A stretch of 64,000 nucleotides of DNA. Origin: Verrucomicrobiales bacterium (lineage in GTDB: Bacteria > Verrucomicrobiota > Verrucomicrobiia > Limisphaerales > J093). The translations under genes and the position numbers were made by a program. The DNA is taken from assembly GCA_015075445.1 (NCBI GenBank), contig JABTUJ010000001.1, positions 167,059-231,058 of the forward strand. The letters are read 5' to 3'. The notes beneath the pieces were generated by a model. The model was not told the DNA's origin. It saw nothing but the letters and a program-made list of their open reading frames with translations, and did not search any database. Position 1 is the stretch's first letter; each line of letters starts with the position of its first letter. Below are positions 40,208 to 55,715 of the stretch, one piece after another.

Positions 40208-42334
40208 TCAGCGCCGGGACATCCGCGGCCTCGACATGGGACGCACGATGGTTACGCCGTCGCCCGGTGGCGGCATGGCGATCAGCGTCGTTCGGTCATC
40301 GGCGTTAGCGCACCGCGGACCAGCAAGGTTTGCCGCCACGCCCTGCGGATCTGTACCGGCACCGACACGGTCGGGCGCCGATTTCGGCGTGTGCTGCGGG
40401 CGGCCGTCCGGGCCGAGTTGGACAAGTGAGTTAGCGCCGGGCGTGTCTTCATGAACCAAACTCAACTTGCAGCGTGCCCAGGCCACCCGGTTGAGTAAGA
40501 GGCGGGTGTTGAGCCGGGGATTGCCCGTCAGCCAACGGGCCCGGAAGGAGATCTCGTACTCCCGCCCGTTCACCACGCTCCGCCCGTTGCGCAGCGTGGT
40601 TTCAAGGTGATTGTGCATGTGCTCCTGCGGACCGGTGGCGACGAGATGAAGGACGTGGTTACCCGGCTGGTCCGGGTCGGCGATCACGCGGCTGTGGCGA
40701 TGGGTGCCCAGGGCCCGCCACCCGGTCATGCCGTTCTCGAAATCGCCGTTGCTTACCAGGTCGACCGGCGTGCCCGCAGGTGTTTCCACGACGCGGAGGT
40801 CATCGATCAAGCATTCGCCGGCATTGAGCAGGCCGAGGATGAAGTCGTTCCACTGCGTGGGCTGCGTGCCGGCTGGAAAACCGGCCACGCGGCGATACCT
40901 GACCGTTTCCCAGGCGGACTTGCCGGACTCGTCGCTCGCAGCCCAGGCTTCGGGACGGGCGTTGTCAGCGAATGGATCCCGGAGCTCAAGGCTGGACCCG
41001 CCGCCATCCGCTGCGGCCGGCCAGGGGCCGCGATCAAAGTAGTGCACTTCGTCGGCGGGATTGCCGGCGGCATCGCGCAGCCAGATCCGCTCACCGCGAC
41101 GGGACAGGCGCCCGGCGAAGTCGCCCACGATGTCGACTCCGGGGTATTCCGCCCGCAACGCCGCGGCGTCGCGGGCCACCACCAGGTAGCCGCCCGGCGC
41201 CAGGTGTTGTCCCACGGCAAAGCGGTACGCAATGCCGCCGCCGAACTCCCAGCCGCCCAGATCCACCACGTTCGTGCCGCGGTTGTACAACTCGATCCAC
41301 TGCGCATCCGACGGCACCGGTGCCCCGGTCGGCGCCGCCACCCGCAGCGCCGGGTGGTACATGATCTCGTGGATCACCACATCTTCGCTGAATCGGAAGC
41401 GGTTCGCCGCCCCGGGCGATGGCTCCGCCGGGCGCCACCAAGGTCCGTGCCCATCCGGGAACCGCGCCCACGGCGCCGCCTCAACGACCACGCCGTCCGC
41501 CACACGCGTCCGGTCTGGCGTATACAGAAACAGGCGGTCGCCCGGGCTCGGGCGAAACCCGAGCGTTCGTTCGTCGAGGACCTGGAACCCGCCGGCCTCG
41601 ACGCTTGTGCTTTCGGGCAGCACAAAGTCCGCGCGGGTGGCACCCGCCGCGCGCAACACCCAGCCTGCCAGCGTCACGGGCTCCGGGCCTCGATTCAACA
41701 ACTCGACCCAGAACGTTGCGTCTGCGGTCCCGCTGGTCTCGTTGAAGGCCACCGCCAACCCGGGGGCGGCCGGCCCGGGGAAGTTCTCCCGGCCGGGCGT
41801 CCCGCCGACTTCGGCGCTCGCGGCCCAATGGTCCGGTGCGGCACTTCCCCAGTCCCGGTCGAGCTTGGCCAGGGAAACCCCGGCTCCGTCCGGGGCCACG
41901 GGCCATTCGTCGCGCGTGCCGAAGCGGAGTTGGTCCATCAACCGACCGTTCGCATTGCGCAGCTCGAGCGTTCCGCCGGCGTTCGAGAGCCGGTTCGTGT
42001 ACGGGCCAAGCAGCGACGTCAGGCCGGTGGCCGCCGCCAGCGCCTCCGGGTGGATGGCCAGCACCGCGTAACTCTGCCCCGCGACGCGGGTGCCCTCCGG
42101 GAACGCGTACGCGATGTCCCCGGTCACGCGCCAGCCCGACACGTCGAGGTCCACGGCCATCTGGTTGTAGAACTCGACCCACTCCATCGCCGGCTCATTC
42201 GTGGCCGGGTGGTACATCACCTCATTGAACACCAAAGCCGTGTCGGCGTGCAGGCGGTTGGCTGGAATCCCTCCCAACACAAGCAACAGCCCGAGGCGCA
42301 GACAGGTCGTCAACCTCCCGCCAGGCCGCCGCAT
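40208..42334 (-). CDS. N-terminal segment: signal peptide + three lamin-tail domains + NGDFE carbohydrate-binding-like module
   Basis: ATG at 42334 (MRRPGGRLTTCLRLGLLLVLGG); codons upstream of it are a REP element. LTD signatures LVFNEVMYHP...EWVEFYN...SGWRV, VAFNETSG...FWVELLN and VVIHEIMYHP...QWIELYN. Then LVSNGDFENGMTGW. Confidence 0.7.
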   Translation of the reverse strand: MRRPGGRLTTCLRLGLLLVLGGIPANRLHADTALVFNEVMYHPATNEPAMEWVEFYNQMAVDLDVSGWRVTGDIAYAFPEGTRVAGQSYAVLAIHPEALAAATGLTSLLGPYTNRLSNAGGTLELRNANGRLMDQLRFGTRDEWPVAPDGAGVSLAKLDRDWGSAAPDHWAASAEVGGTPGRENFPGPAAPGLAVAFNETSGTADATFWVELLNRGPEPVTLAGWVLRAAGATRADFVLPESTSVEAGGFQVLDERTLGFRPSPGDRLFLYTPDRTRVADGVVVEAAPWARFPDGHGPWWRPAEPSPGAANRFRFSEDVVIHEIMYHPALRVAAPTGAPVPSDAQWIELYNRGTNVVDLGGWEFGGGIAYRFAVGQHLAPGGYLVVARDAAALRAEYPGVDIVGDFAGRLSRRGERIWLRDAAGNPADEVHYFDRGPWPAAADGGGSSLELRDPFADNARPEAWAASDESGKSAWETVRYRRVAGFPAGTQPTQWNDFILGLLNAGECLIDDLRVVETPAGTPVDLVSNGDFENGMTGWRALGTHRHSRVIADPDQPGNHVLHLVATGPQEHMHNHLETTLRNGRSVVNGREYEISFRARWLTGNPRLNTRLLLNRVAWARCKLSLVHEDTPGANSLVQLGPDGRPQHTPKSAPDRVGAGTDPQGVAANLAGPRCANADDRTTLIAMPPPGDGVTIVRPMSRPRMSRR

Positions 42335-42346
42335 TTCATGTCCCCC

Positions 42347-42369
42347 GTAGGCGCCGACGTCAGGAGGCG
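42347..42369. repeat. solitary REP-like element type A
   Basis: GTAGGCGCCGACGTCAGGAGGCG, immediately upstream of the LTD gene's start codon (minus strand). Confidence 0.8.
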
Positions 42370-42657
42370 TTGGGGAACAGGGCCAAGCCGAGGGACCCCG
42401 CAAACGAGACCCTCGGCTCGCCAACCTTTTCATGAAGGCGGAATAACCTGCTGACGCACTGCACATGGGCCCAGCCTAACCGGAAGGCGGCTCCGGTAAC
42501 AAACCCTCGTCGCAAAGAGGTTGGGGTCACGACGAGCTCTCCGTGAACCGCCCGGTGAGGGCACCCGGCCTGCAGCCTGTAGGCCGGGTCCCCCGACCCG
42601 GCGGGGAGGGTTCCTGGCCCTTGAGCCGATTCAAGCGACCCACGTCCCTTCCCCAAT

Positions 42658-42723
42658 CCCTGATGTTCGTATTCGGTGGAGGGACGCTTCGTCTTGGATT
42701 CTCCGCCGATTACGAACATCGGG
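42658..42723. repeat. REP-like hairpin, third sequence variant
   Basis: CCCTGATGTTCGTATTCGGTGGAG (42658-42681) versus CTCCGCCGATTACGAACATCGGG (42701-42723). About 21 bp paired with 2 mismatches. Confidence 0.75.
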
Positions 42724-42824
42724 AATTGGGCTGAGGGAGGCGCGCCTTGAACCGGGGGTGCGGGCGTCCCGCCTGCACCCTCCGTGGTTCATTGTCCCCG
42801 GACAGGTCCGCAAGGAACAGGACG

Positions 42825-42915
42825 CTTCCCTTAGACTTTGAACTTCCCTTGAGCTTTGAACTTCCCTTGAGCTTTGAACTTCCCTTGAGCTTTGAACTTT
42901 GAACTTGGAGCTTTC
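42825..42915. repeat. 18-nt tandem repeat (CTTCCCTTGAGCTTTGAA) x4 plus partial units
   Basis: Units at 42825-42842 (degenerate), 42843-42860, 42861-42878 and 42879-42896, followed by CTTTGAACTTGGAGCTTTCC. AT-richer than the surroundings. The reverse complement resembles the 20328 repeat. Confidence 0.9.
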
Positions 42916-43179
42916 CTCTTCGTGTCGATGGCGTGCTTCCCGGCGTCGGTCGTGCACCGGGGGTGTTGGGACGGTGCTCCTGAGATTGACAAATGAAACG
43001 GGCCCCCGCCACCTAGACCGGAATCTGACACGACCCATGAGACCCACATTTGACAGCCTTCGAGGGCCTGTGGAAGCACCCGGTGACCGGCCGTTGTCAA
43101 CCGTGCTGCCGTCCGCCGGGCAGGGGCCGCTGGGCAGGCGGCCGCGCTGCGCGGCGGTGAGTACGTCCTCCATTAGCCC

Positions 43180-45296
43180 TTGAGCCTGCCAGCGCTGATG
43201 ATCCTGCTGGGGTCGGGAGCGTGGGCTGCCATCGCCGCGCAGGGGTCCGAGCCGCCGCGGGTGTTGCTCATCCATTCGTTCGGCCGCGAGTTCGCGCCGT
43301 ACGAATCCTTCTCGGGGATCTTCCGGACGGAACTGGTCCGTGAGTCGCCGGTCCCGTTGGATATCTACGAGGTATCCCTCGACTCCGCTCGCTTCCGTGA
43401 GACCGCTCAGGAGGCGCCCTTCCTCGACTACCTGCTGGGCCAGTTTTCGCAGCGCGGCCTGGATCTGGTGGTGCCCATCGGCGGACCGGCCGCGCGCTTC
43501 GCCCAGCGCCATCGGCCGCGGCTGTTTCCGGACGTCCCGCTGCTCCTCGCCGCCACGGACCAGCGCCACCTGGAAGGGGAGGTGCCTGCCACCAACTGCG
43601 CGATGGCGACCGTGATGTATCAGCCGACGCGGATGCTGGACACGATCCTGGAGGTGTTGCCCCTGACGACCAACGTCGCCGTGGTCATCGGTTCCTCGCC
43701 CCTCGAGCAGTTCTGGCTCGCCGAATTGCGGGGCACCTTTGATTCCTACACCGACCGCGTCCGCTTCGAATGGTTGAATGGGTTGTCGTTTGCGCAAGTG
43801 CAACGACACTGCGCCACGCTGCCCCCATGCTCGGCGGTGTTCTTCGCGCTGCTGGCGGTCGACGCCGAGGGGGTGCCGCACATCGAGCAGCAGTCGCTCA
43901 CCCGGCTCCGCGAGGTGGCCAACGCGCCACTGTTTGGCCTGCAAGACACGCAGTTGGGCCGGGGCATCGTCGGCGGCCCGCTCATGAGCATCGAGGAACT
44001 CAGCCGCACGGCCGCTCGTGTGGCGGTTCGCCTTCTGCAGGGTGAGGACCCGGACACGATCCGCCTCCCCCCCCAGGAGCCGGGCCGACCGCAGTTCGAC
44101 TGGCGGGAGCTTCAACGGTGGGGGATTCCCGAGGCCCGGCTGCCGGCCGGCAGCCTCATCCGGTTCCGCCAGCCCACGGCTTGGGAACGCTACCGCTGGC
44201 GGATCATCGCGGTGATGTCGCTTTGCCTGCTCCAGGCGTTCCTCATCGTGCTGCTGGTCGTCCACCGCAGCCGGCGCCGCCGCGCCGAGCAATCGCTGCG
44301 GGAAAGCGAGGAGCGGCTGAGCCTGGCGGCGGCGGCGGGGACCGCATCTGATGGACCTGGACCCATTAACGGGTTTAAATACGGCGAACTGGCGCCGTAT
44401 GTTCGGCTTTCCGGTGCCGGAGCCCTGCCACGCGGCGGTGGTGGGAGCGCATCCACCGCACGATCGCGAGGGGGTCAGCCCGTGGCCTCTGCGACGGGCG
44501 GTGGCTGTGCGGACGGATTACGGAGAACATCGTGTTTCTCCTGACGGCACGTAGGCGCTGATTGCCGCCCGGCTGGCCACCGCTTGGCTGATACCGACAG
44601 GTGCCCGTACGTTGCGCGGCCGGACATCACTGAACGAAGGCGCATTAAGAGGAAGCGCGTGAATGGAGCTGGCGCCTGATAGCGCCCAGGGAGTGGAACG
44701 GCCCGGCTGGCCCGCGAACTGCACGCCGATTGATATCACCCAGCGGCTCGCCCGTCTGGCCATCGACATCGCAAGCTGTGAGCACGGCACGTCCGGGGTG
44801 GTGCTGGAGGAAACGGCGCGGATGGTTCGTGAAGGCCTGGTGCGGCCGAGCCGATGACGTCCACGCGCTTCCTACCGCCTGCATCCTTCCGGTGCTGAAG
44901 ACCATTCTCGGCGGCTGCCCTGAAAGCCGAGACGAACGGTTCGCGCCAGGAGGGACTCCCGTGGGCCCAGGCTGCTGAGGTCCCGGATTACATTGCGCAC
45001 GATGTTGCGTCCTGGCCCTTTCGCGTGGCCCAGGAAGCGCTGGTGCAACGCGACGCCGCTACGCGCGGGCGGCCGGGTCGAGGTGGATGCGACCGCTCGA
45101 CGGGGCCCGCAGTTGGCGGTTCGACAACGGCTGCGGCTTCAATCCCTCCCCTCGAACGCGATCGGCTCCAGCCTGGCTGGCCAGCATGCGCTGAACGCGC
45201 GCGTCGGTCTGCTCGGAGGCGAAGTGGAGATTGACCCGCCCTGGCAGCGGCACTACCGTGCTGGCCTGGGTGCCGCTGGCGCCCAAGACTCGATGA
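43180..45296 (+). pseudogene. sensor histidine kinase (periplasmic substrate-binding-like domain, TM, PAS, HisKA_3, HATPase); frame intact to about 44343, then multiply frameshifted
   Basis: Intact N-part in ORF 43180..44544 (…RWRIIAVMSLCLLQAFLIVLLVVHRSRRRRAEQSLRESEERLSLAAAAG). Later pieces lie in shifting frames: DLDPLTGLNTANWRRMFGFP (PAS), DITQRLARLAIDI (HisKA_3 H-box region), DVHAL.YRLHPS, FRVAQEALVQ..., GSGTTVLAWVPLA (ATPase G2 region). The stop TGA at 45294-45296 overlaps the RR ATG. Confidence 0.65.
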
Positions 45297-46909
45297 ACAC
45301 GCCCCGCCGCCCCCGCCTCCTCCTGGCGGATGACCACCGCTCGTGCTGAGGCCCTCAAGAGCCTGTCTGATCCGAGTCCGATGCCTGGAGGATCGGAGGA
45401 TGGCCGCGCCCTGTCGGCGGGCAAACGCCCGCGACCCGACGGATCGCAGCTGGACATCGCGATGCCCTCAGCTCAACGCATCGACGCGCCGGTCCAGCTC
45501 ATACGATACGCCTGGTGGAAAGTCAGTCTTCTGACCATGCATCCGATAATGCCCACGCGCGGCGCGCCCGAGGCCGGAGCCGCCGTCTGTCCTCGCCACC
45601 GGCTCCGCCGAGCCTGAGTTTGGATATCCTGGGGCATGGTGCGGGTCGAATCCGCTGGAGTTGCGGATCAGCGGCGTGCGCCGACCTACCGTTTGATAGG
45701 TGGGCGAAGTGACCGCCGGAAAACGACCGGTCGACGGCCAGCTGTTTGCAGGGCCCACCCGGTCCAGTGCAGTGAGTGGCCGCTTCGGTCCCGCGGCGCC
45801 ATCTGGCAAGGTGGGCCTATGACCCCGCCAGAGGGTGCCGTAGCACTGGAGGCTGGCCAAGAGCCACCAGCCATACATGGCCACCAGCCGCGCGGGTACT
45901 TTGCCTACGGAGTGCTGATCCCAGACCTGAGCCTGGCCGATGCCGAGGCTGCCGGTACGGGCGTCCGTTCCGGTGGTGGGATATTCTACTGCGCTGCCCA
46001 CCAGCCAGTGACTCCTGCTCTGGAACCGCCCTGCCAATGGATCTTGGTCAGTTCCTTGTAGCGCACCCGGCGAAAGCAGCCCCCGTGAAAGATCTGGATC
46101 TTCCCCGACCGCGCCCTGGAAACCCCGATAATGATACTGGGCCAGCCAGCGTCCCACGCGCCGACAGGTAACCTGAGGGTCTGGACCAACGAGGCCCACG
46201 GGCCGCACGGAAGCCAGATCGCCGTCCATGCGCGTCGGCGTCGCGGACAGCCGTTCCGGCTGGCCAGGGTGGGGCTTGCGCACGCGGCCAACCCGTGCGG
46301 GTCCGTGGCGCGTGCCCAAGCACACCGGCCCGCAGCCCAAGAGCAACGCGGGCGGCCAGCGTCCCTTTGAGTCGGCCGGGCCGCGTTACGTCAGTCCCAG
46401 AGCTCGCACAGATCACGCGGACAGCGACGTGCGATGCCAGTCAGGTGCGCTGCCACCAGCGCGCACCGCCGCCAGATCATCGCCCGAGAGCGTGCGGCCC
46501 TGGACGCGGATCGCTTCCACTGGCCCCGGGATCTACGCCATCATGGGTCGTGAGTTCAGCGGAAAATGTCCAAACTCCAGACTCGGCTTCCGCCGAGCTC
46601 ATCATGGCCATCCGCGCCGCCCTGGCGGGCAAGACCTACATCACCCCGGCGCTCGCCGGCGAGGTCTTCCAGGCTATGCTCCACCCGCCGCCACCCGGCG
46701 GCGACCCGGTCATGCGGCTGACCCCCCGCCAGCGCGAGATCCTCCAGTTGCTGGCCGAAGGCTGCTCCGCCAAGGAAGTCGCTGACAAGCTCGCCATCTC
46801 CCCCCGCACAGTCGAGTTCCACAAGTACCAGTTGATGGAATCGCTCGGCCTCCACCACAGCGCCGAGCTGATCCTCTTCGCCATCAAACACGGGATCGTC
46901 AGTTCCTGA
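45293..46909 (+). pseudogene. NarL/LuxR-family response regulator, frameshifted receiver domain, interrupted by a roughly 985-bp insertion
   Basis: MNTPRRPRLLLADDH (45293...), ...DGRAL...RPDGSQLDIAMP..., KVSLLTMHP and EAGAA in shifting frames. After the insertion there is an intact tail SAELIMAIRAALAGKTYITP...LTPRQREILQLLAEGCSAKEVADKLAISPRTVEFHKYQLMESLG (LuxR HTH) ending at 46909. Confidence 0.7.
45614..46598 (-). mobile_element. insertion carrying a single degraded DUF4338 (DruA-like) gene, flanked by a 14/15-nt direct repeat
   Basis: Minus-strand pieces: PVEAIRVQGRTLSGDDLAAVRA, RDLCELWDWRNAAGRLK and RWLAQYHYRGFQGAVGE (compare the HYLGY motif) match the DUF4338 N-to-C order but in several frames. 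Flanks are CGGCTCCGCCGAGC (45600-45613) and CGGCTTCCGCCGAGC (46584-46598). Confidence 0.55.
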
Positions 46910-46935
46910 TCGACTGGTAATTCCCGGGCCGCGAT

Positions 46936-46962
46936 CCCCGTAGAATTGCGAGGTCACAGCGG
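46936..46962 (+). promoter_or_regulatory. conserved 23-nt motif CGTAGAATTGCGAGGTCACAGCG (site 1), about 130 nt upstream of the decarboxylase start
   Basis: 21/23 identical to 55790-55812. Function unknown. Also resembles the REP type-B core. Confidence 0.3.
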
Positions 46963-47090
46963 ACTGCACCCCGGTGAGATTAGCTGATGTCAGCGAACCT
47001 CGCCGGGCGCGAATCTCCGCCGCAGCGGCAGCGCAGGGCGCAGCCAGGTCACGATCCGAGGCTCGGGACGCAGCGCGACCTAACTTCCCT

Positions 47091-49859
47091 ATGAAGACAA
47101 CCGACAAGTCAAACACCGGCGAACCCCGGACTCAGGATCTGGCCCCCATCTTCGCGGCGGCGGTCAATCGAACCGATCAATGGCGTGAGCTCCACGCCCT
47201 GGGTCGTGCGTGGGCCACGGCGCAGGGTGCTCCGGCAGAGGATCTGCGCGCCCAGGCCGCTGGACTGCTGCACACCATCAGCCGGCTCGAGCAGTGCTGG
47301 GCTTATCCGGGGCCGCGTCTGCTCGCCGCCCTTACCGAGGCGATGGCGCGGCGCGACGCCGCCACCTTCGCCCGCCTGGTGCAGAAGGTGTCCAGTGCGC
47401 TGCTTTCGGGTGACTACCGGCGGAGCGAGGGGGCCTGGGATCCTTCCACGGAGAGCGCCACCCGGCCGCTCGAAGCGGCCCTGCCGCCCGAGGCGGACAC
47501 GGGGGAGACGTCGAAGCCGAGCTTCGAGGTCCTGATCGTCACGCCGACCGACCCCGCCACGTGGGAACGCGGGCGCGCGGACATGAAGCGGATGCGGCGG
47601 CCGGAGGATCAGTTTCAGTACGAAGTCGTGCAGGCCGGGAGCTTCGAGGACGCCGCTCTGGCAGTGTTGGTCAATGACAACCTGCAGGCGGTCGTGATCG
47701 TGGACGGATTCCAGTATGGCTCCCGGCTCGAGATGCCGGATCTGCAAGCGTTCCTCGCCCGTTACCTGTCCATGGACCGTTCGTCGATCGAACCGGGTGC
47801 CCTGGCCACGGCGCTGGCCCAGGCGATCAAGCGATGCCGGCCGGAGCTCGACCTCTACCTGCTCTCGGATCGTACGGCCGAAGCCCTGGCGGGCAGTGAA
47901 GCCCTCGGCGGGGTGCGGCGGATGTTCCACCACGTCGAGGAGCCCATGGAAATCCACCTGTCCATCCTCGACGGCGTCAAGGACCGCTACGATACGCCGT
48001 ACTTTGACAACCTCAAGAAGTACGCGCAGCGCCCCATCGGCACCTTCCACGCCCTGCCCATCGCCCGCGGGAAGTCGGTGTTCCGCTCGAATTGGATTCG
48101 GGACTTCGGCCAGTTCTACGGCACGAACATCTTCTTCGCCGAGTCCTCGGCCACGACGGGCGGCCTGGACAGCCTGCTGGAGCCGACGGGCAACATCAAG
48201 AAGGCCCAGGACATGGCCGCGCGGGCGTTTGGGGCGAAGCGTGCCTACCTCGGCACCAACGGCACCTCGACTTCGAACAAGATCGTCGTCCAAGCCGTGT
48301 GCCAGCCGGGAGACATCGTGATCGTGGACCGCAACTGCCACAAGTCGCACCACTACGGCATGGTGCTCAGCGGCGCGCAGCCCTTGTACGTCGAGGCGTT
48401 CCCCCTGACTGAGTACTCGATGTATGGCGCCGTGCCCTTGCGCACGATCAAGAAGGCGCTGCTGGATTGCCAGGCCGAGGGCAAGCTCGACCGGGTCAAG
48501 GTCATCGACATGACCAACTGCACCTTCGACGGCCACATGTACAACCCCCGTCGGGTGATGGAGGAGTGTCTGGCGATCAAGCCCGACCTGATCTTCCTCT
48601 GGGATGAGGCATGGTTCGGCTTCGCGCGGTTCAATCCGTTTCACCGCCGCCGCACCGGGATGGGGGCCGCCGCCGCCTTGGCGGAGCGCTATCACGATCC
48701 CGCGTACCGGGAAGAGTACAAGGCCTGGGCGGCCAAAGTCGGCAAGCTCGACCCGAAGAACCCGAAACTGCTCGACCTGCACCTGCTGCCCGACCCGGAC
48801 AAGGTCCGGATCCGGGTCTACCAGACCAACTCGACCCACAAGTCCATGTCCGCGTTCCGGCAGGGCTCGATGATCCTGGTCTGGGACGAGGATTTTCACC
48901 AGGTCGAAGGTCCGTTCGAGGAGGCCTTCTTCACCCACACGTCCACGTCACCGAACCTGCAGCTCATCGCCTCACTGGACATCGCGCGCCGGCAGATGGA
49001 GTTGGAGGGCTATGGCCTTACCCTGCGCATGACCGACATCGCCTTCCGCATCCGGCGCGCGGTCAACACGCATCCGCTCGTCTCGAAGTACTTCCGGGTG
49101 GCCACACCGGCGGACATGATCCCCGCCCCGTTCCGCGCCTCCGGTTTGAAGGACTACGGTCCGCCCCACTCGACGTGGACCGACGTGGTCAAGGCCTGGG
49201 ACGAGGATGAGTTCGCGCTGGACCCCACCCGGCTGACCCTGATCTGTGGTGGTGCCGGGTTTGATGGCACCCAGTTCAAGGGTCTCCTGGCCGAGCGGTT
49301 CGACATCCAGATCAACAAGACCTCGCGCAACAGTGTGCTCGTGCAGACCAACATCAACAACACCCACAGCGACGCCGCGCTCCTCATCAAGGCGCTGGTC
49401 GACCTGTCGCGCGAGATTGAGCGCAAGCTGGCCCAGGGCGGGAAGGCGGTCCTCGACGCGCGGGTCAAGTCCCTGATGACCGATGTGCCCGACCTGCCGA
49501 ACTTCAGCCGGTTCCACGACGCCTTCCGCGACAACCCGAAAGCGGCCAGCAACGAAGGGCACATGCGCCCCGCGTTCTTCATGGCCTACGACGAGTCCAA
49601 CTGCGAGTTCCTCAAACTGGCCAGCAAGGAAGTGGATGAGCGGCTCAAGAAAGGGCCGGAGATGGTGTCGGCCAACTTCGTCATCCCCTATCCCCCTGGC
49701 TTCCCCATCATGGTGCCGGGCCAGGTGATCACGGCCGACACCATCAGCTTCATGCGCCAGCTCGATGTGAAGGAGATTCACGGCTACCACGCCGCCCAGG
49801 GGCTGAAGCTGATCAAGCCTGACAAGCTGCGCGGCACCGCCCGGAAATCCGCGAAATAG
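47091..49859 (+). CDS. Orn/Lys/Arg decarboxylase family protein (PLP fold-type I), long form with N-terminal extension
   Basis: ORF 46974..49859 trimmed to ATG 47091. FHALPIARGKSVF..., SATTGGLDSLLEPTG, GTNGTSTSNKIVVQAV, IVDRNCHKSHHY, and TNSTHKSMSAFRQGSMI (PLP-lysine motif S-x-H-K). A wing/receiver-like region FEVLIVTP...VVIVDG is preceded by about 150 extra residues. Confidence 0.85.
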   Translation: MKTTDKSNTGEPRTQDLAPIFAAAVNRTDQWRELHALGRAWATAQGAPAEDLRAQAAGLLHTISRLEQCWAYPGPRLLAALTEAMARRDAATFARLVQKVSSALLSGDYRRSEGAWDPSTESATRPLEAALPPEADTGETSKPSFEVLIVTPTDPATWERGRADMKRMRRPEDQFQYEVVQAGSFEDAALAVLVNDNLQAVVIVDGFQYGSRLEMPDLQAFLARYLSMDRSSIEPGALATALAQAIKRCRPELDLYLLSDRTAEALAGSEALGGVRRMFHHVEEPMEIHLSILDGVKDRYDTPYFDNLKKYAQRPIGTFHALPIARGKSVFRSNWIRDFGQFYGTNIFFAESSATTGGLDSLLEPTGNIKKAQDMAARAFGAKRAYLGTNGTSTSNKIVVQAVCQPGDIVIVDRNCHKSHHYGMVLSGAQPLYVEAFPLTEYSMYGAVPLRTIKKALLDCQAEGKLDRVKVIDMTNCTFDGHMYNPRRVMEECLAIKPDLIFLWDEAWFGFARFNPFHRRRTGMGAAAALAERYHDPAYREEYKAWAAKVGKLDPKNPKLLDLHLLPDPDKVRIRVYQTNSTHKSMSAFRQGSMILVWDEDFHQVEGPFEEAFFTHTSTSPNLQLIASLDIARRQMELEGYGLTLRMTDIAFRIRRAVNTHPLVSKYFRVATPADMIPAPFRASGLKDYGPPHSTWTDVVKAWDEDEFALDPTRLTLICGGAGFDGTQFKGLLAERFDIQINKTSRNSVLVQTNINNTHSDAALLIKALVDLSREIERKLAQGGKAVLDARVKSLMTDVPDLPNFSRFHDAFRDNPKAASNEGHMRPAFFMAYDESNCEFLKLASKEVDERLKKGPEMVSANFVIPYPPGFPIMVPGQVITADTISFMRQLDVKEIHGYHAAQGLKLIKPDKLRGTARKSAK

Positions 49860-49900
49860 GCCGCCCCGCATCTGCGCTCAACCCCAAGAGGCCCCCTGCC

Positions 49901-51601
49901 ATGCAAGCGTTCTTCGAATTCCTCCGCGCCAACCCCTACATCCTCCTGTTCTTCACGATCGGACTGGCGGTGTATGTGGGCAAGTTCAACGTCAAGGGCT
50001 ATGGCCTGGGCATGGTCGCCGCTGCCGTCGTCGTCGGTTGCGCGCTGGCCACGTGGGCCTCGACCTATGGGGTCAAGCTCCAGCTCGATGACTTCGCCAA
50101 GTCACTCTTCTACTACCTGTTCATGTATGGCGTGGGCCTCCGGGTGGGCCCCTCGTTCTTCAACAGCCTCAAGAAGGACGGACTCAAGTTCACGATCCTC
50201 GCCGTGGTGTGCAGCATCATGGGTCTGGTGCTCGTGGTGCTGGGGGCGAGGATGTTCGACCTGCCTCCCGGCGCGGCAGGTGGAATCCTGGCCGGTTCGC
50301 AAACCATGTCCGCCGCCATCGGCACGGCGGAGATGGCAGTCACCCAGGGGGCGTACAAGCTGCCCGATGGCACCTCGGCCGAATCGGTGTCGGCGATGAT
50401 CGCGCTCGGCTACGGGGTCACTTACATCTGGGGCACGGTGGGGATCATACTGATCTGCAAGTACCTTCCGCGCTGGTGGGGCCTGGACGCCAAGCAGGCC
50501 GCCAAGGAGTACGAACAGACCCACGGCGTCGCCAACGTGGATGATTCCGGCCTCACCGGCTATCGCCCCGCGGGATTGCGCGCCTACAAGCTGGAGAACC
50601 CGGCCACCGCCGGTCAGACCATTGCCCAGTTCCGCCAGAAACACCCGCAGTACCGCATCGTCAACGTCGTCCGGAACGGCGAGTCCATCGGCGCCAGCCC
50701 GGACGCGGCCCTGCAGGCCGGCGACGTCATCGCGCTCGGCGGCCGGCTCGAGGACCTCACTTCAAACATGGGGCTGATCGGTCCCGAGGTGGCCGATAGC
50801 AAGGCCCTGAACATCCCCCTGGACCAAGCCGAGGTCTTGGTCACGAACAAGGACCTCGAAGGCAAGGCCCTCAAGGAGTTCCGCCACGAGGATTTCGCCG
50901 GCCAATTGCAGGTGGTCCGCCTCGAACGCGGCGGGGTGCCGATCCCGCTCGGGGCCGACACCCAACTCCAACGCTTCGACGTGCTGTTTGTCGCGGGCCT
51001 CAAGAGCGCCGTCAACAAGCTGGCCGCACTCGTGGGCAAGGTCGCCCGCCCCAGCACGGCTACCGACCTGTTGACCCTCTCCGTGGGCATGGTCGTCGGC
51101 CTGCTCGTCGGGCAGATCAACGTGCCGGTCGGCAGCTTCTCCGTGGGGCTGGGCAACGCTGGCGGGCTGTTGCTTTCGGGGATCTTCGTGTCGTCCATTG
51201 TCTCGCGGCTGCGTTTCTTTGGCAGCACACCCAACGCGGCGCGCAACATCCTCGAGGACCTGGGTCTGGTGACGTTCATCGCCATCGTCGGCATCAACGC
51301 CGGCTCGACCCTGCTGGCGCAACTCACGGGTAAGATCGCCCTGTTCATCTTCCTGGCCGGCTTCATCGCCAGCACCATTCCGCCCATCCTGACCTGGGCC
51401 ATCGGCTATCACTTCATGAAGATCAACCCGGCCGTGCTCATGGGCGGGGTCGCTGGCGCCCGCTCGCATTCGGGCCCGGCGCGGGAGGCTGCCAAGGAGA
51501 TCGACAGCAGCGTGCCGTGGGTTGGTTTCCCCGTGGGCTACGCCGTCTCGGGGGTGTTGCTGACGGTGTTTGGCTACTTCGCGATGGTGTTCTCCAAGTA
51601 G
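49901..51601 (+). CDS. AspT/YidE/YbjL-family transporter (aspartate:alanine-exchanger family) with two central TrkA-C/RCK_C-like domains, paralog 1
   Basis: MQAFFEFLRANPYILLFFTIGLAVYVGKFNVKGYGLG is the typical N-terminus of the family. Duplicated membrane halves flank a cytoplasmic region (…YRIVNVVRNGESI...AGDVIALGG...; ...VVRLERGGVPIP...RFDVLFVAG). Confidence 0.8.
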   Translation: MQAFFEFLRANPYILLFFTIGLAVYVGKFNVKGYGLGMVAAAVVVGCALATWASTYGVKLQLDDFAKSLFYYLFMYGVGLRVGPSFFNSLKKDGLKFTILAVVCSIMGLVLVVLGARMFDLPPGAAGGILAGSQTMSAAIGTAEMAVTQGAYKLPDGTSAESVSAMIALGYGVTYIWGTVGIILICKYLPRWWGLDAKQAAKEYEQTHGVANVDDSGLTGYRPAGLRAYKLENPATAGQTIAQFRQKHPQYRIVNVVRNGESIGASPDAALQAGDVIALGGRLEDLTSNMGLIGPEVADSKALNIPLDQAEVLVTNKDLEGKALKEFRHEDFAGQLQVVRLERGGVPIPLGADTQLQRFDVLFVAGLKSAVNKLAALVGKVARPSTATDLLTLSVGMVVGLLVGQINVPVGSFSVGLGNAGGLLLSGIFVSSIVSRLRFFGSTPNAARNILEDLGLVTFIAIVGINAGSTLLAQLTGKIALFIFLAGFIASTIPPILTWAIGYHFMKINPAVLMGGVAGARSHSGPAREAAKEIDSSVPWVGFPVGYAVSGVLLTVFGYFAMVFSK

Positions 51602-51612
51602 GCGGGGCGGCC

Positions 51613-53304
51613 ATGGACTGGCTGGAACAACTCTTCGCCAAGTACCCGGAGCTGGCGGTCTACCTGTCCCTCGGGATGGGTTTCTGGGTCGGCGGCCGGA
51701 CCTTCCGCGGCTTCAGCCTCGGGGGGGTGACGGGCTCGCTGCTGGCAGGCATCGTCCTCGGGTATCTCTTCGAAGTACCGGTCTCGGGGGCGGCCAAGTC
51801 GGTCGTGTTCCTGCTCTTCATGTTCGGGATCGGCTACAGCGTCGGGCCGCAGTTCTTCAAGGCGATGCGGGGGGACGGCTGGCGCTTCGCGGTGCTCGCC
51901 GTCTTCATGCCCGTGGTGGGATTGCTGGTGACCTACGTCGTCGCCCGCATCCTGCAGCTTGATGCCGGCTTTGCCGGTGGGTTGCTTTCGGGGGCGCTGA
52001 CCCAGTCGCCGGCGATGGGCACGGCGAGTGACGCGATCCAATCGCTCGCGCTGCCCGACGACGTGAAGCAGCGACTGGTCGGTCACGTGGCGGTGGGGGA
52101 CGCGCTGTGCTACGTGTTCGGCGCGTTTGGCGTCATCTATTGCTGCACGGTGCTGGGTCCGAAACTGCTCGGCATCGACCTCCCCAGCGAGGCCGCGAAG
52201 CTCGAGGCGGCGTACGGCATCAAACGCACCAAGCAGGGCGTGGTCTCGGCGTGGCGGGCCTTCGAACTCCGCGCCTACCGCCTGCCTCCCGCCTCCCGTG
52301 CGGCGGGCCGCACCGTGGCGGAAGCCGAGCAACTGGTGCCCAACGCCCGCGTGTTCGTTCAGCGCCTCCGCCGCGACCGGGAACTGATTGAAGCGGCGCC
52401 GCAGACCGTCCTGCAGGCGGGCGATGTCGTGGCCGTCATCGGCCGGCGGGAGGTGCTGGTGGAGATCCTCGGCGCCCAGCTCCAGGAACTCGAAGACCGC
52501 GAGTTGCTCGATCTGCCGGCGGCTTCCTTCGACGTGTTCGTGAGCGCCAAAGATCTGGTGGGCCGCCCCCTCGAGGACCTGGCGCGCGACGACACCCTGC
52601 GGAGTGTGTTCCTGCGGCGGCTCACGCGGGGTGGCCTCGACATCCCGATTGGCACCCGGACGGTCCTGGAGCGGGGTGACGTCGTGACTCTCGTTGGGCC
52701 CGAGGCTGCCGTCGAGCGGGTGGCCCCGAGGTTCGGCCGCACGGTTCGTCCCACCGAAGTGACCGACTTTGTGGCGGTGGGCTTGGCGATCTGCGCCGGT
52801 GCCCTGGTGGGGGCCGCGCTCGCGTTCGAGGTCGGTTCCGTGAAGCTCGCGCTGGGCACCACCGTGGGAACCCTCCTGGCGGGCATCGGAACCGGCTACC
52901 TTCGCTCCGTGCGGCCGCTCTTCGGGCGGGTGCCTGACGGCGCGGTCGCCTTCATGCAGACCTACGGGTTGGCGGCGTTTGTGGCGATGGTGGGCCTGGG
53001 GGCCGGACCCCATTTCCTTCCCGCGGTCAAAGAGGCCGGGTTGGGCCTGCTGGTGGGGGGCGTGTTCGTGACCCTGATCCCGCCGATTGCCGGGCTGTAC
53101 TTCGGTCGCTACGTGCTGCGGGTGAATCCGCTCCTGCTCCTGGGCGGCCTCTCCGGGGCGCAGACGTTCACGGCGGGGCTCGCCGCGGTCCAGGAGAAAT
53201 CCGGCAGCCCGATCGCCGTGCTGGGTTACTCCGGTGCCGTGCCGGTCGCTCAAGTCCTCCTGACCACGTGGGGGACGGTCATCGTCCTGTTGCTGTCGCG
53301 GTGA
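51613..53304 (+). CDS. AspT/YidE/YbjL-family transporter, paralog 2
   Basis: ORF 51517..53304 trimmed to ATG 51613. MDWLEQLFAKYPELAVYLSLGMGFWVGGRTFRGFSLGG. Same two-half plus two RCK_C-like architecture (…VFVQRLRRDRELI...AGDVVAVIG; ...FLRRLTRGGLDIP...RGDVVTLVG). Starts 11 nt after paralog 1. Confidence 0.8.
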   Translation: MDWLEQLFAKYPELAVYLSLGMGFWVGGRTFRGFSLGGVTGSLLAGIVLGYLFEVPVSGAAKSVVFLLFMFGIGYSVGPQFFKAMRGDGWRFAVLAVFMPVVGLLVTYVVARILQLDAGFAGGLLSGALTQSPAMGTASDAIQSLALPDDVKQRLVGHVAVGDALCYVFGAFGVIYCCTVLGPKLLGIDLPSEAAKLEAAYGIKRTKQGVVSAWRAFELRAYRLPPASRAAGRTVAEAEQLVPNARVFVQRLRRDRELIEAAPQTVLQAGDVVAVIGRREVLVEILGAQLQELEDRELLDLPAASFDVFVSAKDLVGRPLEDLARDDTLRSVFLRRLTRGGLDIPIGTRTVLERGDVVTLVGPEAAVERVAPRFGRTVRPTEVTDFVAVGLAICAGALVGAALAFEVGSVKLALGTTVGTLLAGIGTGYLRSVRPLFGRVPDGAVAFMQTYGLAAFVAMVGLGAGPHFLPAVKEAGLGLLVGGVFVTLIPPIAGLYFGRYVLRVNPLLLLGGLSGAQTFTAGLAAVQEKSGSPIAVLGYSGAVPVAQVLLTTWGTVIVLLLSR

Positions 53305-53403
53305 CGACCCATGCCAGGCGCCCGTCGCCAAACCCCCGGTGGACCCGCCACTCTCCCTTCCTGAACCGAAGCCAATCACACAGAGAAACACACTCGAGCC
53401 ACT

Positions 53404-54888
53404 ATGAAAACGCACTCGTCCCTGAGATCTCTCGCGCTGGCGGGCGCCGTTCTGGCTGCCGGTCTGCCCGGGCACACACAGGCTCCGGACACGGCCGAGT
53501 TGGAGCAGCTCAAGTCGACGGTCAAGGCGATGGAGCAAACTCTCCAGGAAATGAACCGGAAGATCGCCGAGCTGGAGAAGCAGACCCAGCCGGCTCCCCC
53601 CCCGGTCCAGCCGGTGGCACCGGCGCCAGCCCCTCCGACCATCCCGCCCGCCACGCACCCGGGTGCCGACCTCCCCACCCGGGCGCAGCCGCCGGCCGAT
53701 GAGCTGGCCGACGGCACCACCCAGATTCCCTATCGGGATAGCATGAAGGAGGAAGACCTGGCTGCGCCGCGTCCCGGCAATGCTCCGCTCGACCCGACCT
53801 ATCAGGGGTTCATGCAACTGTTCGGCACCAAGACCTGGGTCAAGCTCGGGGGCTATGCCAAGTTGGATGCCATCGCGGACTCCACCCGGGTGGGCAACCC
53901 GAACATGTTCATCACTTCGAAGATCCCGGTCGAAGGGGAGCCGGACTACGGCAAGGGCGAGCACTTCGCGTTGCATGCCAAGCAGACCCGCTTGAACCTG
54001 GAACTCCGTTCGCCGACTCCGCTGGGCGCCTTGAAGATCTACTACGAGAACGACTTCTTCGGGAACAACACCGAGCCCTCGATGGACTACCGGCTCCGCC
54101 ACTTCTACGGCCAGCTCGCCAACCTCACCGTGGGACAGACCTGGAGCACCTTCTATGACCCGGATGTGAACCCCGACACGCTCGACTTCGAAGGGCCCGG
54201 TGTTCTGCCCGTCCTCCGCCAACCTGAAGTCCGCTACACCATCCCGATCCTGAAGAACGCCATGTACACGGCGCTCGCGATCGAGCAGCCCAAAAGCGAT
54301 CTGGGCAACCTCCCCGCGGGTGCCGATGGACGGAACACGATGCCCGACTTCGCCGGCCATTGGCGCTGGGAAGGCAAGCCGGGTCATGTGCAGGTGGGCG
54401 GCCTGCTCCGCAGCCTCTCCTTCGACCACAGCACCGGACCCGACGATTCTGCCATGGGGTGGGGCGTGAACCTCTCCGGCGGGCTGAAGACCTTCGGGGA
54501 GGACCAGATCATCACCAGCTTCAGTTACGGCGACGGCATCGGCCGCTACATCCAGGATCTGCCCAGCGGTAGCGCCGGCGTCGTGGATGCCGCGGGAGAC
54601 CTGCACCTGCTCACCGCCTGGGGGGCCATGGTCGGCTACCGCCGCCAGTGGAGCGAGAAGTGGCGCTCCACGCTCAGCTACAGCTACGTGACCTCGGATG
54701 GTCGGCCGGAACAGGGCGACTTCGCCTATGATCAGACCCAGTACGCCCAGGCCAACCTCGTCTGGTCTCCCACGAAGAACTTCTATCTGGGGCTCGAGTA
54801 CCTCTACGGCTTCAAGGAAGCGCAGAACGGGAGCAGCGGAGACGATCATCGCGTCCAGCTCAGCTTCCAGTACAAGCTCATCCGGTAA
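53404..54888 (+). CDS. outer-membrane porin with N-terminal coiled coil (DcaP-like)
   Basis: Signal MKTHSSLRSLALAGAVLAAGLPGHTQA. Coiled coil ELEQLKSTVKAMEQTLQEMNRKIAELEKQ, then a Pro-rich linker, then about 380 aa with alternating beta-strand-like pattern rich in Y/F/W/G and a terminal LSFQYKLIR. Confidence 0.55.
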   Translation: MKTHSSLRSLALAGAVLAAGLPGHTQAPDTAELEQLKSTVKAMEQTLQEMNRKIAELEKQTQPAPPPVQPVAPAPAPPTIPPATHPGADLPTRAQPPADELADGTTQIPYRDSMKEEDLAAPRPGNAPLDPTYQGFMQLFGTKTWVKLGGYAKLDAIADSTRVGNPNMFITSKIPVEGEPDYGKGEHFALHAKQTRLNLELRSPTPLGALKIYYENDFFGNNTEPSMDYRLRHFYGQLANLTVGQTWSTFYDPDVNPDTLDFEGPGVLPVLRQPEVRYTIPILKNAMYTALAIEQPKSDLGNLPAGADGRNTMPDFAGHWRWEGKPGHVQVGGLLRSLSFDHSTGPDDSAMGWGVNLSGGLKTFGEDQIITSFSYGDGIGRYIQDLPSGSAGVVDAAGDLHLLTAWGAMVGYRRQWSEKWRSTLSYSYVTSDGRPEQGDFAYDQTQYAQANLVWSPTKNFYLGLEYLYGFKEAQNGSSGDDHRVQLSFQYKLIR

Positions 54889-54894
54889 CCCCCG

Positions 54895-54940
54895 CCCCTC
54901 CGCCATCCGGCCGCCGCGCCCCGGCGGAGGGGTGTCGTCA
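54895..54940 (+). terminator. possible intrinsic terminator after the porin gene
   Basis: CCCCTCCGCC (54895-54904) pairs with GGCGGAGGGG (54923-54932), followed by TGTCGTC. The loop is long (18 nt) and the U-tract is weak. Confidence 0.25.
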
Positions 54941-54962
54941 CCGCGCCCGCAATCTGCGCTCC

Positions 54963-55715
54963 ATGCTTCAGGGTCAGTTCACTCTGCCGATCCAGATCGA
55001 CCTGGTCGCCACCTTCCTGTTCGCCCTGACGGGTGCGTTGGCGGCGTTGCGGCGCGGCTACGATGTGGTGGGGTTGTTCGCGTTGGCCTTCGTCACGGGC
55101 GTGGGAGGCGGGCTGATTCGCGACGGCCTCTTCATCCAGCAGGGCCCGCCGGCCGTGACCTCGGATTCGCGGTACATCTTGGTCGTCCTGCTGGCGGGCT
55201 GCGTGGCCTTCCTGTTCCGGGAGCGGATCATCGGTCTGAACCGGGTGATTGCCTGGCTCGACACGCTGGGCGTGCGGACCCACCTCTTCCGGGACCAGCT
55301 CAACCGGTTCAACAAGGGGATCGCCTGGCTGGATGCGCTGGGCCTGGGCGCTTACGCGGTCGTGGGCGTGCAGAAGTCGTTGAACGCAGGCCTGAGCATC
55401 GCCGCGGCCGTGCTGGTGGGGGTGATCAACGCATCGGGGGGCGGGTTGTTGCGTGACGTCCTGGTGCGGGACGAACCGCTGCTCTTCAAGCCGGGCCAGT
55501 TCTATGTGCTGGCGGGGTTCGCCGGCTGCCTGCTGTTCGCGGTGCTCGCGGTGCACTTCCAACTCGAGGCCACCCCGGCCGCGTTCATCGGCATTCTCGT
55601 GACGTTCGTGCTCCGCGTGCTGGCCATCCAGTTCAACTGGGTGTCACCCCCCCTGTGGCGCGGACCCGCCTCAGCCCCGCCCGCGAACGAGTGTCCGCCC
55701 CCGCCGGCGGCCTGA
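54963..55715 (+). CDS. TRIC-type (UPF0126/YadS-like) cation channel family membrane protein
   Basis: Two internal repeats, each with the glycine motif: FVTGVGGGLIRDGLF and VINASGGGLLRDVLV. About 7 hydrophobic segments. Confidence 0.7.
   Translation: MLQGQFTLPIQIDLVATFLFALTGALAALRRGYDVVGLFALAFVTGVGGGLIRDGLFIQQGPPAVTSDSRYILVVLLAGCVAFLFRERIIGLNRVIAWLDTLGVRTHLFRDQLNRFNKGIAWLDALGLGAYAVVGVQKSLNAGLSIAAAVLVGVINASGGGLLRDVLVRDEPLLFKPGQFYVLAGFAGCLLFAVLAVHFQLEATPAAFIGILVTFVLRVLAIQFNWVSPPLWRGPASAPPANECPPPPAA

Follow-up and report, generated by a model that had tools for sequence, protein, structure and literature searches.

An internally deleted two-gene insertion sequence in a response-regulator gene and hairpin-sized target duplications among its relatives

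The length of the duplication that an insertion sequence (IS) leaves at its target is usually a fixed signature of the transposase. Canonical IS701 elements are 1.4–1.55 kb, and nearly all of them generate a duplication that is exactly 4 bp long (PMC2266710). IS1272, a member of the IS1182 family, replaces stem-loop targets of 22–30 bp and varied sequence located in or downstream of genes and makes no duplication (PMC5678879). ISs that target repetitive extragenic palindromes (REPs) split the palindrome at a fixed position and have direct repeats of 0–6 bp (PMC1525189), and the IS4-related elements IS1634 and IS1549 have long, variable repeats of 8–514 bp for which there is no mechanistic model (PMC2266710). 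The subject of this report is an insert in a 64,000-nt stretch of DNA from a Verrucomicrobiales bacterium (GCA_015075445.1, contig JABTUJ010000001.1), referred to as the window, together with the IS family to which it belongs, in which duplication length follows the size of the target hairpin.

The evidence points, with a probability of about 0.85, to a 2.39-kb two-gene IS that inserted into a hairpin within a response-regulator gene, duplicated the entire hairpin and then underwent internal deletions. What was observed directly comprises the blocks of homology, the inverted repeats, the duplication and the relatives' adherence to the hairpin rule. The initial annotation of the window had described a DUF4338-only mobile unit, which should not be taken to document a novel type of transposon, and the feature in the window is in itself ordinary.

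Anatomy of the element, the insert and the interrupted regulator gene

The full element is 2.39 kb (2.39–2.40 kb) and consists of a 294-aa DUF4338/DruA-like gene and a 463-aa IS701-like DDE transposase gene that overlap by 4 nt. The DUF4338 protein P0001 is encoded on ten Logan contigs, each of which continues with a 4-nt-overlapping gene of up to 463 aa that matches Pfam DDE_5 wherever it is complete. The full-length copy L002 ends in a perfect 15-bp inverted repeat, CTGGAGTTTGGACAT...ATGTCCAAACTCCAG. The transposase of an intact relative scores 41 bits against DDE_5 (cutoff 27), and its best NCBIfam match is transpos_IS701_3 at 137 bits, below the cutoff of 170; no close named relative of the transposase was found among plasmid records. 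A genome scan located relatives mainly in Verrucomicrobiota/Limisphaerales metagenome-assembled genomes (MAGs). One Verrucomicrobiota MAG (JAXGQW01) carries the element at six loci, five of them 2.40-kb copies with sharp boundaries and 98–99.96% pairwise identity. The generic attributes of an IS, namely terminal inverted repeats, flanking duplications and multiple loci in one MAG, are thus all present.

Two variant copies were also observed. The sixth JAXGQW01 copy (L054 3941–8299) is 4359 bp and contains ~1.96 kb of foreign DNA near its transposase-side end; its outer 22-bp hairpin duplication is intact despite the internal insertion. A 236-bp MITE, a miniature transposable element with inverted repeats (L014 3683–3918), shares its terminal inverted repeats with the 2.4-kb element, is unrelated to it internally, and lies in tandem with a full copy with one hairpin common to both.

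The insert in the window occupies 45614–46580 (967 bp, minus strand; the insert and both flanking repeats are numbered within the window) and is an internally deleted, non-autonomous remnant of this element. Three blastn blocks against L002 together cover all of it: window 46580–46102 corresponds to L002 102–589 (89%), 46121–45947 to L002 1858–2040 (81.5%) and 45951–45601 to L002 2143–2502 (78.5%). Searches by tblastn with the L002 protein place codons 1–144 of the DUF4338/DruA-family gene at 46098–46520 on the minus strand (E = 2e-37), frameshifted in the window. The retained portion comprises the winged-helix-like region, the linker and the first part of the GNAT-like domain; 144 of the 294 aa are kept and residues 145–294 are absent. 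The remainder consists of two C-terminal pieces of the IS701-like transposase, both on the minus strand and both detected by tblastn. Residues 273–306 (SRARSGKIQIFHGGCFRRVRYKELTKIHWQGGSR) lie at 46019–46120 (88% identity, E = 5e-17) and residues 369–457 of the 463-aa DDE_5 protein lie at 45687–45947 (53% identity, E = 6e-21).

Two deletion junctions account for the missing segments. The first, at 46102–46121 (minus strand), is marked by overlapping blastn blocks and has lost ~1.27 kb (L002 590–1857) at a 20-nt microhomology between L002 570–589, TTCCAGGGGGCGGTCGGGGA, and L002 1858–1877, TTCCCGCGCCCGGTGGCAGA. The second, at 45947–45951 (minus strand), has lost ~102 bp of the transposase gene, as judged from the block limits at L002 2040 and 2143.

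Both ends of the element are present. The terminal inverted repeat at the transposase end lies at 45614–45627 on the minus strand and was located by a repeat search, a pattern search and comparison with the L002 ends; it reads CTGAGTTTGGATAT in the window against the consensus CTGGAGTTTGGACAT. The repeat at the DUF4338 end lies at 46566–46580, where the plus strand reads ATGTCCAAACTCCAG and the minus strand is a perfect CTGGAGTTTGGACAT, identical in ten Logan contigs and in the independent short-read contig L001 (9147 bp, ENA ERZ27309506), which corresponds to window 46403–55547. The repeat search placed the inverted repeats immediately inside the direct repeats, at 45616–45627 (GAGTTTGGATAT) and 46566–46577 (ATGTCCAAACTC). 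The insert is a dead, at best trans-mobilisable remnant with both ends kept and no intact transposase. The initial annotation had reported neither a transposase nor terminal inverted repeats; both statements fall with these results.

The insert is bounded by a target duplication. The right copy, ACTCGGCTTCCGCCGAGC (46581–46598, 18 nt), is identical in L001, as is the right junction, and consists of 1 nt, the stem CTCGGC, the loop TTCC, the stem GCCGAG and 1 nt. This 16-nt hairpin folds as DNA at −7.3 kcal/mol,.((((((....)))))). for the 18 nt, and only 0.1% of window 18-mers are as stable. The left copy, ACCGGCTCCGCCGAGC (45598–45613), aligns with it as AC-CGGCT-CCGCCGAGC. The flanking repeat is not a chance occurrence, because it abuts the terminal inverted repeats and fits the hairpin-plus-1-nt rule of eight independent insertions described below. 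The repeats given earlier, CGGCTCCGCCGAGC at 45600–45613 and CGGCTTCCGCCGAGC at 46584–46598, are where they had been placed, with a 10-nt exact core and a spacing of 985 nt; they belong to a genuine target duplication, although its extent of 14/15 nt was too short and 18 bp (ACTCGGCTTCCGCCGAGC) is the best reading.

The duplicated DNA is native coding sequence of a NarL/GerE-type response regulator. The right copy encodes the codons S A S A E L, which align with SAASEL of the ortholog. The 5′ (receiver) half of the gene is at 45296–45613 on the plus strand; it starts MNTPRRPRLLLADDH and then continues in other frames, and the ortholog RR93 matches 45308–45337 and 45351–45500 in different frames (tblastn). 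The 3′ half, at 46583–46909 on the plus strand, is an intact ORF (open reading frame) that encodes the linker and the GerE/LuxR-type helix-turn-helix (HTH) domain, with 50% identity to RR93 residues 107–211 (tblastn); the L001 gene call carries PF00196 (GerE) and is a receiver-less HTH ORF of 101 aa. In the syntenic contig L093, which has the order kinase, regulator, second receiver, decarboxylase, the regulator ortholog is uninterrupted and reads straight across the insertion site. The native regulator reads ...SASAELIMAIRAALAG at the site and the L093 ortholog reads ...SSAASELFSAIQAAMEG. The empty-site peptide 'LATGSAELIMAIRAALAG' reconstructed in the initial annotation is approximately right; it is not exact, and the left copy from which it was built lies in indel-rich sequence. 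Its wider proposal, a mobile-element insertion that splits a NarL/GerE-type regulator gene and carries an unusually long target duplication, is borne out. The ortholog DNA at the site forms a weak hairpin only, so the hairpin targeted in this genome arose by chance from the choice of codons. The empty target site had no match in a metagenome scan, and the terminal 18-mer gave two chance matches in a scan of viral contigs, each lacking the partner end.

Hairpin duplications across the element family

Besides the window, eight independent sites on other contigs or MAGs have a flanking duplication of 20–23 bp. Written in element orientation, these are CCGCGGACGTGAGTCCGCGC (L013, 20 bp), CGCCGGGTCAGGTGACCCGGCC (L014, 22 bp), TCGGGGGCGTTCGCCCCCGC (L015, 20 bp), AGCGCCGACTCACGTCGGCGGC (L016, 22 bp), AGGACGAGGCGAAGCCTCGACCC (L017, 23 bp), GGCCGGGTCCCCTGACCCGGCG (L054, 22 bp), ATTCAACCCCAAAGGGGTTGAGG (L020, from another MAG, 23 bp) and TCCCCGCTGCAAGCAGCGGGGT (L096–L100, one site in five samples, 22 bp). 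Each of the eight is a single GC-rich hairpin with a stem of 6–9 bp, a loop of 2–4 nt and 1–2 unpaired nt at each end. They fold at −7.7 to −10.7 kcal/mol; random flank windows used as the control have a mean of −1.7 kcal/mol, and 1.9% of them reach −6 or lower. The loop can lie in either orientation (GTGA in L013, TCAC in L016), and recognition therefore looks symmetric. The contigs with a single flank (L004–L007, L019, L101 and L102) also begin or end with hairpins, and a hairpin target is found at all nine complete sites and at about ten single flanks. The palindrome stays whole and is duplicated on both sides, being neither split nor replaced. That the hairpins are part of the element was considered and rejected, since their sequences differ at every site.

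In the flanks of L013, L014, L016, L054 and L102, several target hairpins share the motifs ..GGCTACAA.. and GGGAATCAGC.., which suggests that insertions of the element frequently fall within a family of REP-like repeats in its host genomes.

The following mechanism is proposed. The 2.39-kb element would insert into the fortuitous 16-nt hairpin of the SASAEL codons, with the palindrome bound as an extruded hairpin or cruciform. The two 3′-OH ends would attack both strands just outside the junction, which at the window site would be 1 nt beyond either foot of the hairpin. Two single-stranded gaps the size of the hairpin would result, and their repair would duplicate the whole palindrome and yield, in the window, the hairpin plus 2 nt, or 18 bp. 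The later losses of ~1.27 kb and ~0.1 kb are both located at short sequence similarities. An extruded hairpin is proposed because a fixed transposase geometry cannot yield duplications of 18, 20, 22 and 23 bp that are always cut 1–2 nt outside the stem. Each insertion would thereby double its own target, which would account for the tandem arrays in L014. Duplications that track the hairpin imply that an extruded hairpin or four-way junction is recognized, and they would offer a simple, testable system for structure-directed integration; the long direct repeats left by insertion could also favor precise excision. A literature search returned no equivalent description of cruciform or stem-loop targeting with duplications; ISfinder and TnCentral lay outside that search, and a prior entry there is possible.

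Sequence quality, alternative explanations and the surrounding locus

A stretch of ~2.1 kb in the window, ~44340–46460, is rich in indels and extends over the C-terminal half of a sensor kinase gene, the receiver-encoding half of the regulator gene and the greater part of the insert. The window and L001 differ by three indels and one mismatch, all within 46403–46460 (58 nt, inside the insert), and the next 9.09 kb are without difference. Of 496 positions aligned between the window and L002, 25 are gap columns and about as many are mismatches; natural relatives at 78–83% identity have far fewer gaps, 6 columns in 2391 for L012 and 22 in 2344 for L013. The indel density in the stretch is about ten to twenty times the natural value and its boundaries are sharp. 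When the L001 bases are used, the minus-strand frame is continuous and reads (V)EAIRVQGRTLSGDDLAAVRALVAAHPDWHRTSLSRDLCE. The kinase gene (43180–45293, plus strand, from the ORF list), which lies upstream of the regulator, has the same pattern: it aligns with the L093 ortholog in one frame at 63% identity over 43225–44337, and beyond that point by short high-scoring segments in frames 2, 1 and 3 (tblastn). The excess of indels suggests that ~44340–46460 is probably an unpolished or poorly resolved consensus, or a gap-filled assembly patch, and poor consensus sequence would account for the frameshifts in the window and the imperfect left copy of the repeat. Gene calls in 44340–46460 (the kinase C-terminal half and the receiver) and single-base details, including those of the left repeat copy, are unreliable.

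The poor quality of this stretch bears on two alternatives of similar standing. In one, the real genome holds a full-length 2.39-kb element at the site, and the internal deletions are assembly artefacts like the small indels. The stretch is demonstrably unreliable, L001 runs only 178 nt into the element, as a contig entering a multi-copy repeat would, and leaves the deletions uncovered, and the junction 24-mer was not found elsewhere in the Joint Genome Institute (JGI) metagenomes. Nevertheless, consensus errors of such a kind are indels of 1–3 nt and not clean losses of 1.27 and 0.1 kb, the first junction falls at a 20-nt microhomology typical of real illegitimate recombination, and a natural short derivative with the same inverted repeats exists in the 236-bp MITE of L014. 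A full-length element at this site is unlikely.

The second alternative takes the frameshifts in the kinase, the receiver and the insert as biological, the marks of an old pseudogenised locus. Insertion inactivates the two-component pair, which makes relaxed selection plausible, and the indel zone covers exactly those genes. The ratio of indels to substitutions is ~1:1, however, as opposed to roughly 1:20 to 1:70 in the natural relatives. The zone also has an abrupt end within the element, at 46460, past which identity to L001 is 100%, L001 lacks the window indels in the 58-nt overlap, and the 3′ half of the regulator and the 5′ half of the kinase are untouched. We infer that the numerous small indels of the window arose as errors in the consensus and not through biological decay, and a decayed locus is about as improbable as an undeleted element.

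An autonomous DUF4338-only mobile unit without a transposase or inverted repeats and with a 14/15-nt duplication, which the N-terminal 144 codons of the DUF4338 family, an insert about the size of one DUF4338 gene and the long flanking repeat might recommend, is very hard to sustain, because about half of the insert is transposase-derived (79–82% nucleotide identity to the L002 transposase gene), DUF4338 residues 145–294 are absent, the 15-bp inverted repeats are present and all intact relatives examined carry a DDE transposase.

Several observations weigh against insertion of the two-gene IS into a hairpin followed by internal deletion. At the left end, the inverted repeat departs from the consensus by one deletion and one substitution, tentatively ascribed here to poor sequence, and the left duplication copy retains 16 of the 18 nt of the right copy, with two single-base deletions in the low-quality stretch. 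No accurate contig across the left junction was recovered by exact-protein look-ups with the upstream gene or by a search with the kinase (nothing above 63% identity). A second copy of the element is lacking within the 64-kb window; a 24-nt similarity at 61826–61849 is a chance-level match (E = 0.05). The 24-mer spanning the deletion junction had 0 matches in JGI metagenome contigs, weak evidence from one collection, so that mobilization of the remnant and the reality of the deletions gain no independent confirmation from it. The extruded hairpin or cruciform, which would bring the attack points close together whatever the size of the hairpin, is deduced from the duplication pattern only. Finally, the full copies in L002 and L012 have different hairpins at their two sides and no duplication. 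The L012 hairpins are GGGCA-TCC-TGCCC and CCCCTCTCCTCC-CTT-GGAGGAGAGGGG, the second of which would imply a 29-bp duplication. These mismatched flanks suggest recombination between copies or chimeric contigs, and ISRm22 provides a precedent (PMC1525189).

Downstream of the disrupted regulator, 46974–55547 encodes an OKR_DC_1 decarboxylase (922 aa), two Asp-Al_Ex/TrkA_C transporters and a porin. The order kinase-regulator-decarboxylase is conserved in L093, and for this reason the insertion may have changed the regulation of the decarboxylase/exchanger cassette. No outward sigma-70-like promoter directed toward the receiver-less HTH half was found at the element end, and an Rfam scan of window 42000–48000 detected no RNA family. 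The intergenic region upstream of the kinase contains an 18-nt tandem repeat, CTTCCCTTGAGCTTTGAA (42825–42899, 4.2 copies, 96% matches), and a 14-nt repeat, CCGCCGGGCAGGCGG, is present at 43113–43145 (2.3 copies).

The DUF4338 protein and comparison with known systems

The insert retains a coding remnant homologous to DUF4338/DruA-family proteins, as the initial annotation had proposed. A stitched translation, with the frames joined and the N-terminus corrected from L001, matched 126 proteins of ~294 aa, all but a few with PF14236, and the best was P0001 (E = 3.9e-45). The three raw minus-strand frames gave no PF14236 match in Pfam and nothing in PADLOC, and a homology search with the three frames concatenated gave no match. 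Neither the corrected 143-aa remnant nor the first 144 residues of intact P0001 match PF14236, a result that, for Pfam, formally counts against the DUF4338 assignment. Full-length P0001 scores 97 bits against PF14236 over residues 107–272, and the remnant lacks a match because the retained N-terminal part lies mostly outside those residues. Among the minus-strand peptides listed earlier, EAIRVQGRTLSGDDLAAVRA and QYHYRGFQGAVGE are encoded, and 'WDWRNAAGRLK' requires a repaired stop and a frameshift (the window reads RDLCELWD*RNAARP). DUF4338 C-terminal motifs in other frames of the insert were considered and rejected; the DNA there is transposase-derived, and the second half of a weak frame +1 alignment is spurious.

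The AlphaFold (AF2) model of P0001 (pLDDT 67.8) consists of three helices at the N-terminus, a linker that is disordered and an α/β domain, whose top Foldseek matches in the PDB are the GNAT acetyltransferases SpeG (E = 9e-6), HP0935 and Mu Mom. On this predicted structure DUF4338 has a GNAT-like fold, in agreement with a published assignment (PMC10853773). An exhaustive search yielded 8764 clusters related to P0001, of which 716 had E ≤ 1e-30. In some single-ORF fusions DUF4338 forms the N-terminal part, ahead of Tn5-type, DDE_Tnp_1 or ISAzo13 transposases; in fusions with IS66 transposases it forms the C-terminal part. The fusion proteins are P0294, P0304, P0308, P0335, P0343, P0285 and P0362, and the Tn5-type members combine Tnp_DNA_bind and Dimer_Tnp_Tn5. 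Every intact relative examined has a DDE transposase adjoining or fused with DUF4338. We infer that DUF4338 is a portable accessory of transposition in several DDE families and not the transposase itself. It could act as a regulator of transposition through its winged helix-turn-helix (wHTH) or as an acetyltransferase on a protein or some other substrate. A role for DUF4338 as the hairpin selector was rejected: DUF4338-carrying IS66-type elements make plain 8-bp duplications, and the hairpin rule thus follows the transposase and not DUF4338. Among the papers searched, none that mentions DUF4338 links it to insertion sequences. The IS701-like, IS66, Tn5-like and ISAzo13 contexts provide a second, genetically tractable setting for the study of DUF4338/DruA.

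A broader proposal, which we hold at about even odds, is that the IS701-like transposases of the group with ends CTGGAGTTTGG[A/C]CAT select their target by DNA structure rather than sequence, integrate 1–2 nt beyond each foot of any small GC-rich hairpin or cruciform and so duplicate an entire hairpin (18–23 bp, possibly to 29) whose length the target and not the enzyme sets, a mirror image of the way IS1272 replaces hairpins, and that the wHTH-GNAT protein DUF4338 is a portable module of at least four DDE families, pointing to a transposon-related origin or function of Druantia DruA.

The intact DUF4338 protein belongs to the same Pfam family, PF14236, as DruA of type I Druantia. The DruB–E context is missing here; the neighbors are a histidine kinase, a response regulator, a decarboxylase and transporters. 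DUF4338 genes also accompany IS66-family elements (L027, L044), in which a homologous ORF of ~290–300 aa (~50–55% identity) lies immediately upstream of the transposase gene. Those elements differ in having an IS66-type transposase, ends that read GTAAGCG.. or GTAACT.. and an 8-bp duplication without hairpins. On a 7.9-Mb Limisphaerales chromosome (OZ260084.1; L027–L031 and L033), a 3.69-kb IS66-family element with a DUF4338 gene is present in six or more copies; these copies have internal repeats in an 84-nt register and 8-bp duplications, and two of them lie within ~10 kb.

Duplication of a palindromic unit has an analogy in CRISPR arrays. Repeat duplication by Cas1-Cas2 and casposon integration proceed by staggered attacks at the borders of an often palindromic unit, followed by gap repair that duplicates it. 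The comparison is an analogy only and homology is not claimed, the enzymes being unrelated (Cas1 versus DDE).

Closer relationships lie among the ISs, where the family is a variant of the IS4/IS701-type elements made noteworthy by its whole-hairpin duplications and DruA-like accessory gene. No hairpin logic is reported for the long repeats of IS1634 and IS1549, whereas duplication length here equals the hairpin plus about 2 nt. The REP-targeting ISs (ISPsy8, ISPa11, ISPpu9/10, ISRm22 and IS1397) share a preference for GC-rich extragenic palindromes, and several hairpins of the MAG copies are REP-like; in the present family the palindrome is intact, duplicated whole and not conserved in sequence. 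IS1272 likewise recognizes a stem-loop target by its structure, with variable size and sequence, but it removes the hairpin that is here duplicated on both sides, and its transposase belongs to another family. Canonical IS701 elements carry a single ORF. The element shares with the IS701 family a transposase that matches DDE_5 and has transpos_IS701_3 as its best, though below-cutoff, NCBIfam model, terminal inverted repeats and a target duplication, and it is set apart by its length of 2.39 kb, its additional DUF4338 ORF and its 18–23-bp duplications, which are set by the target hairpin, in place of 4 bp.

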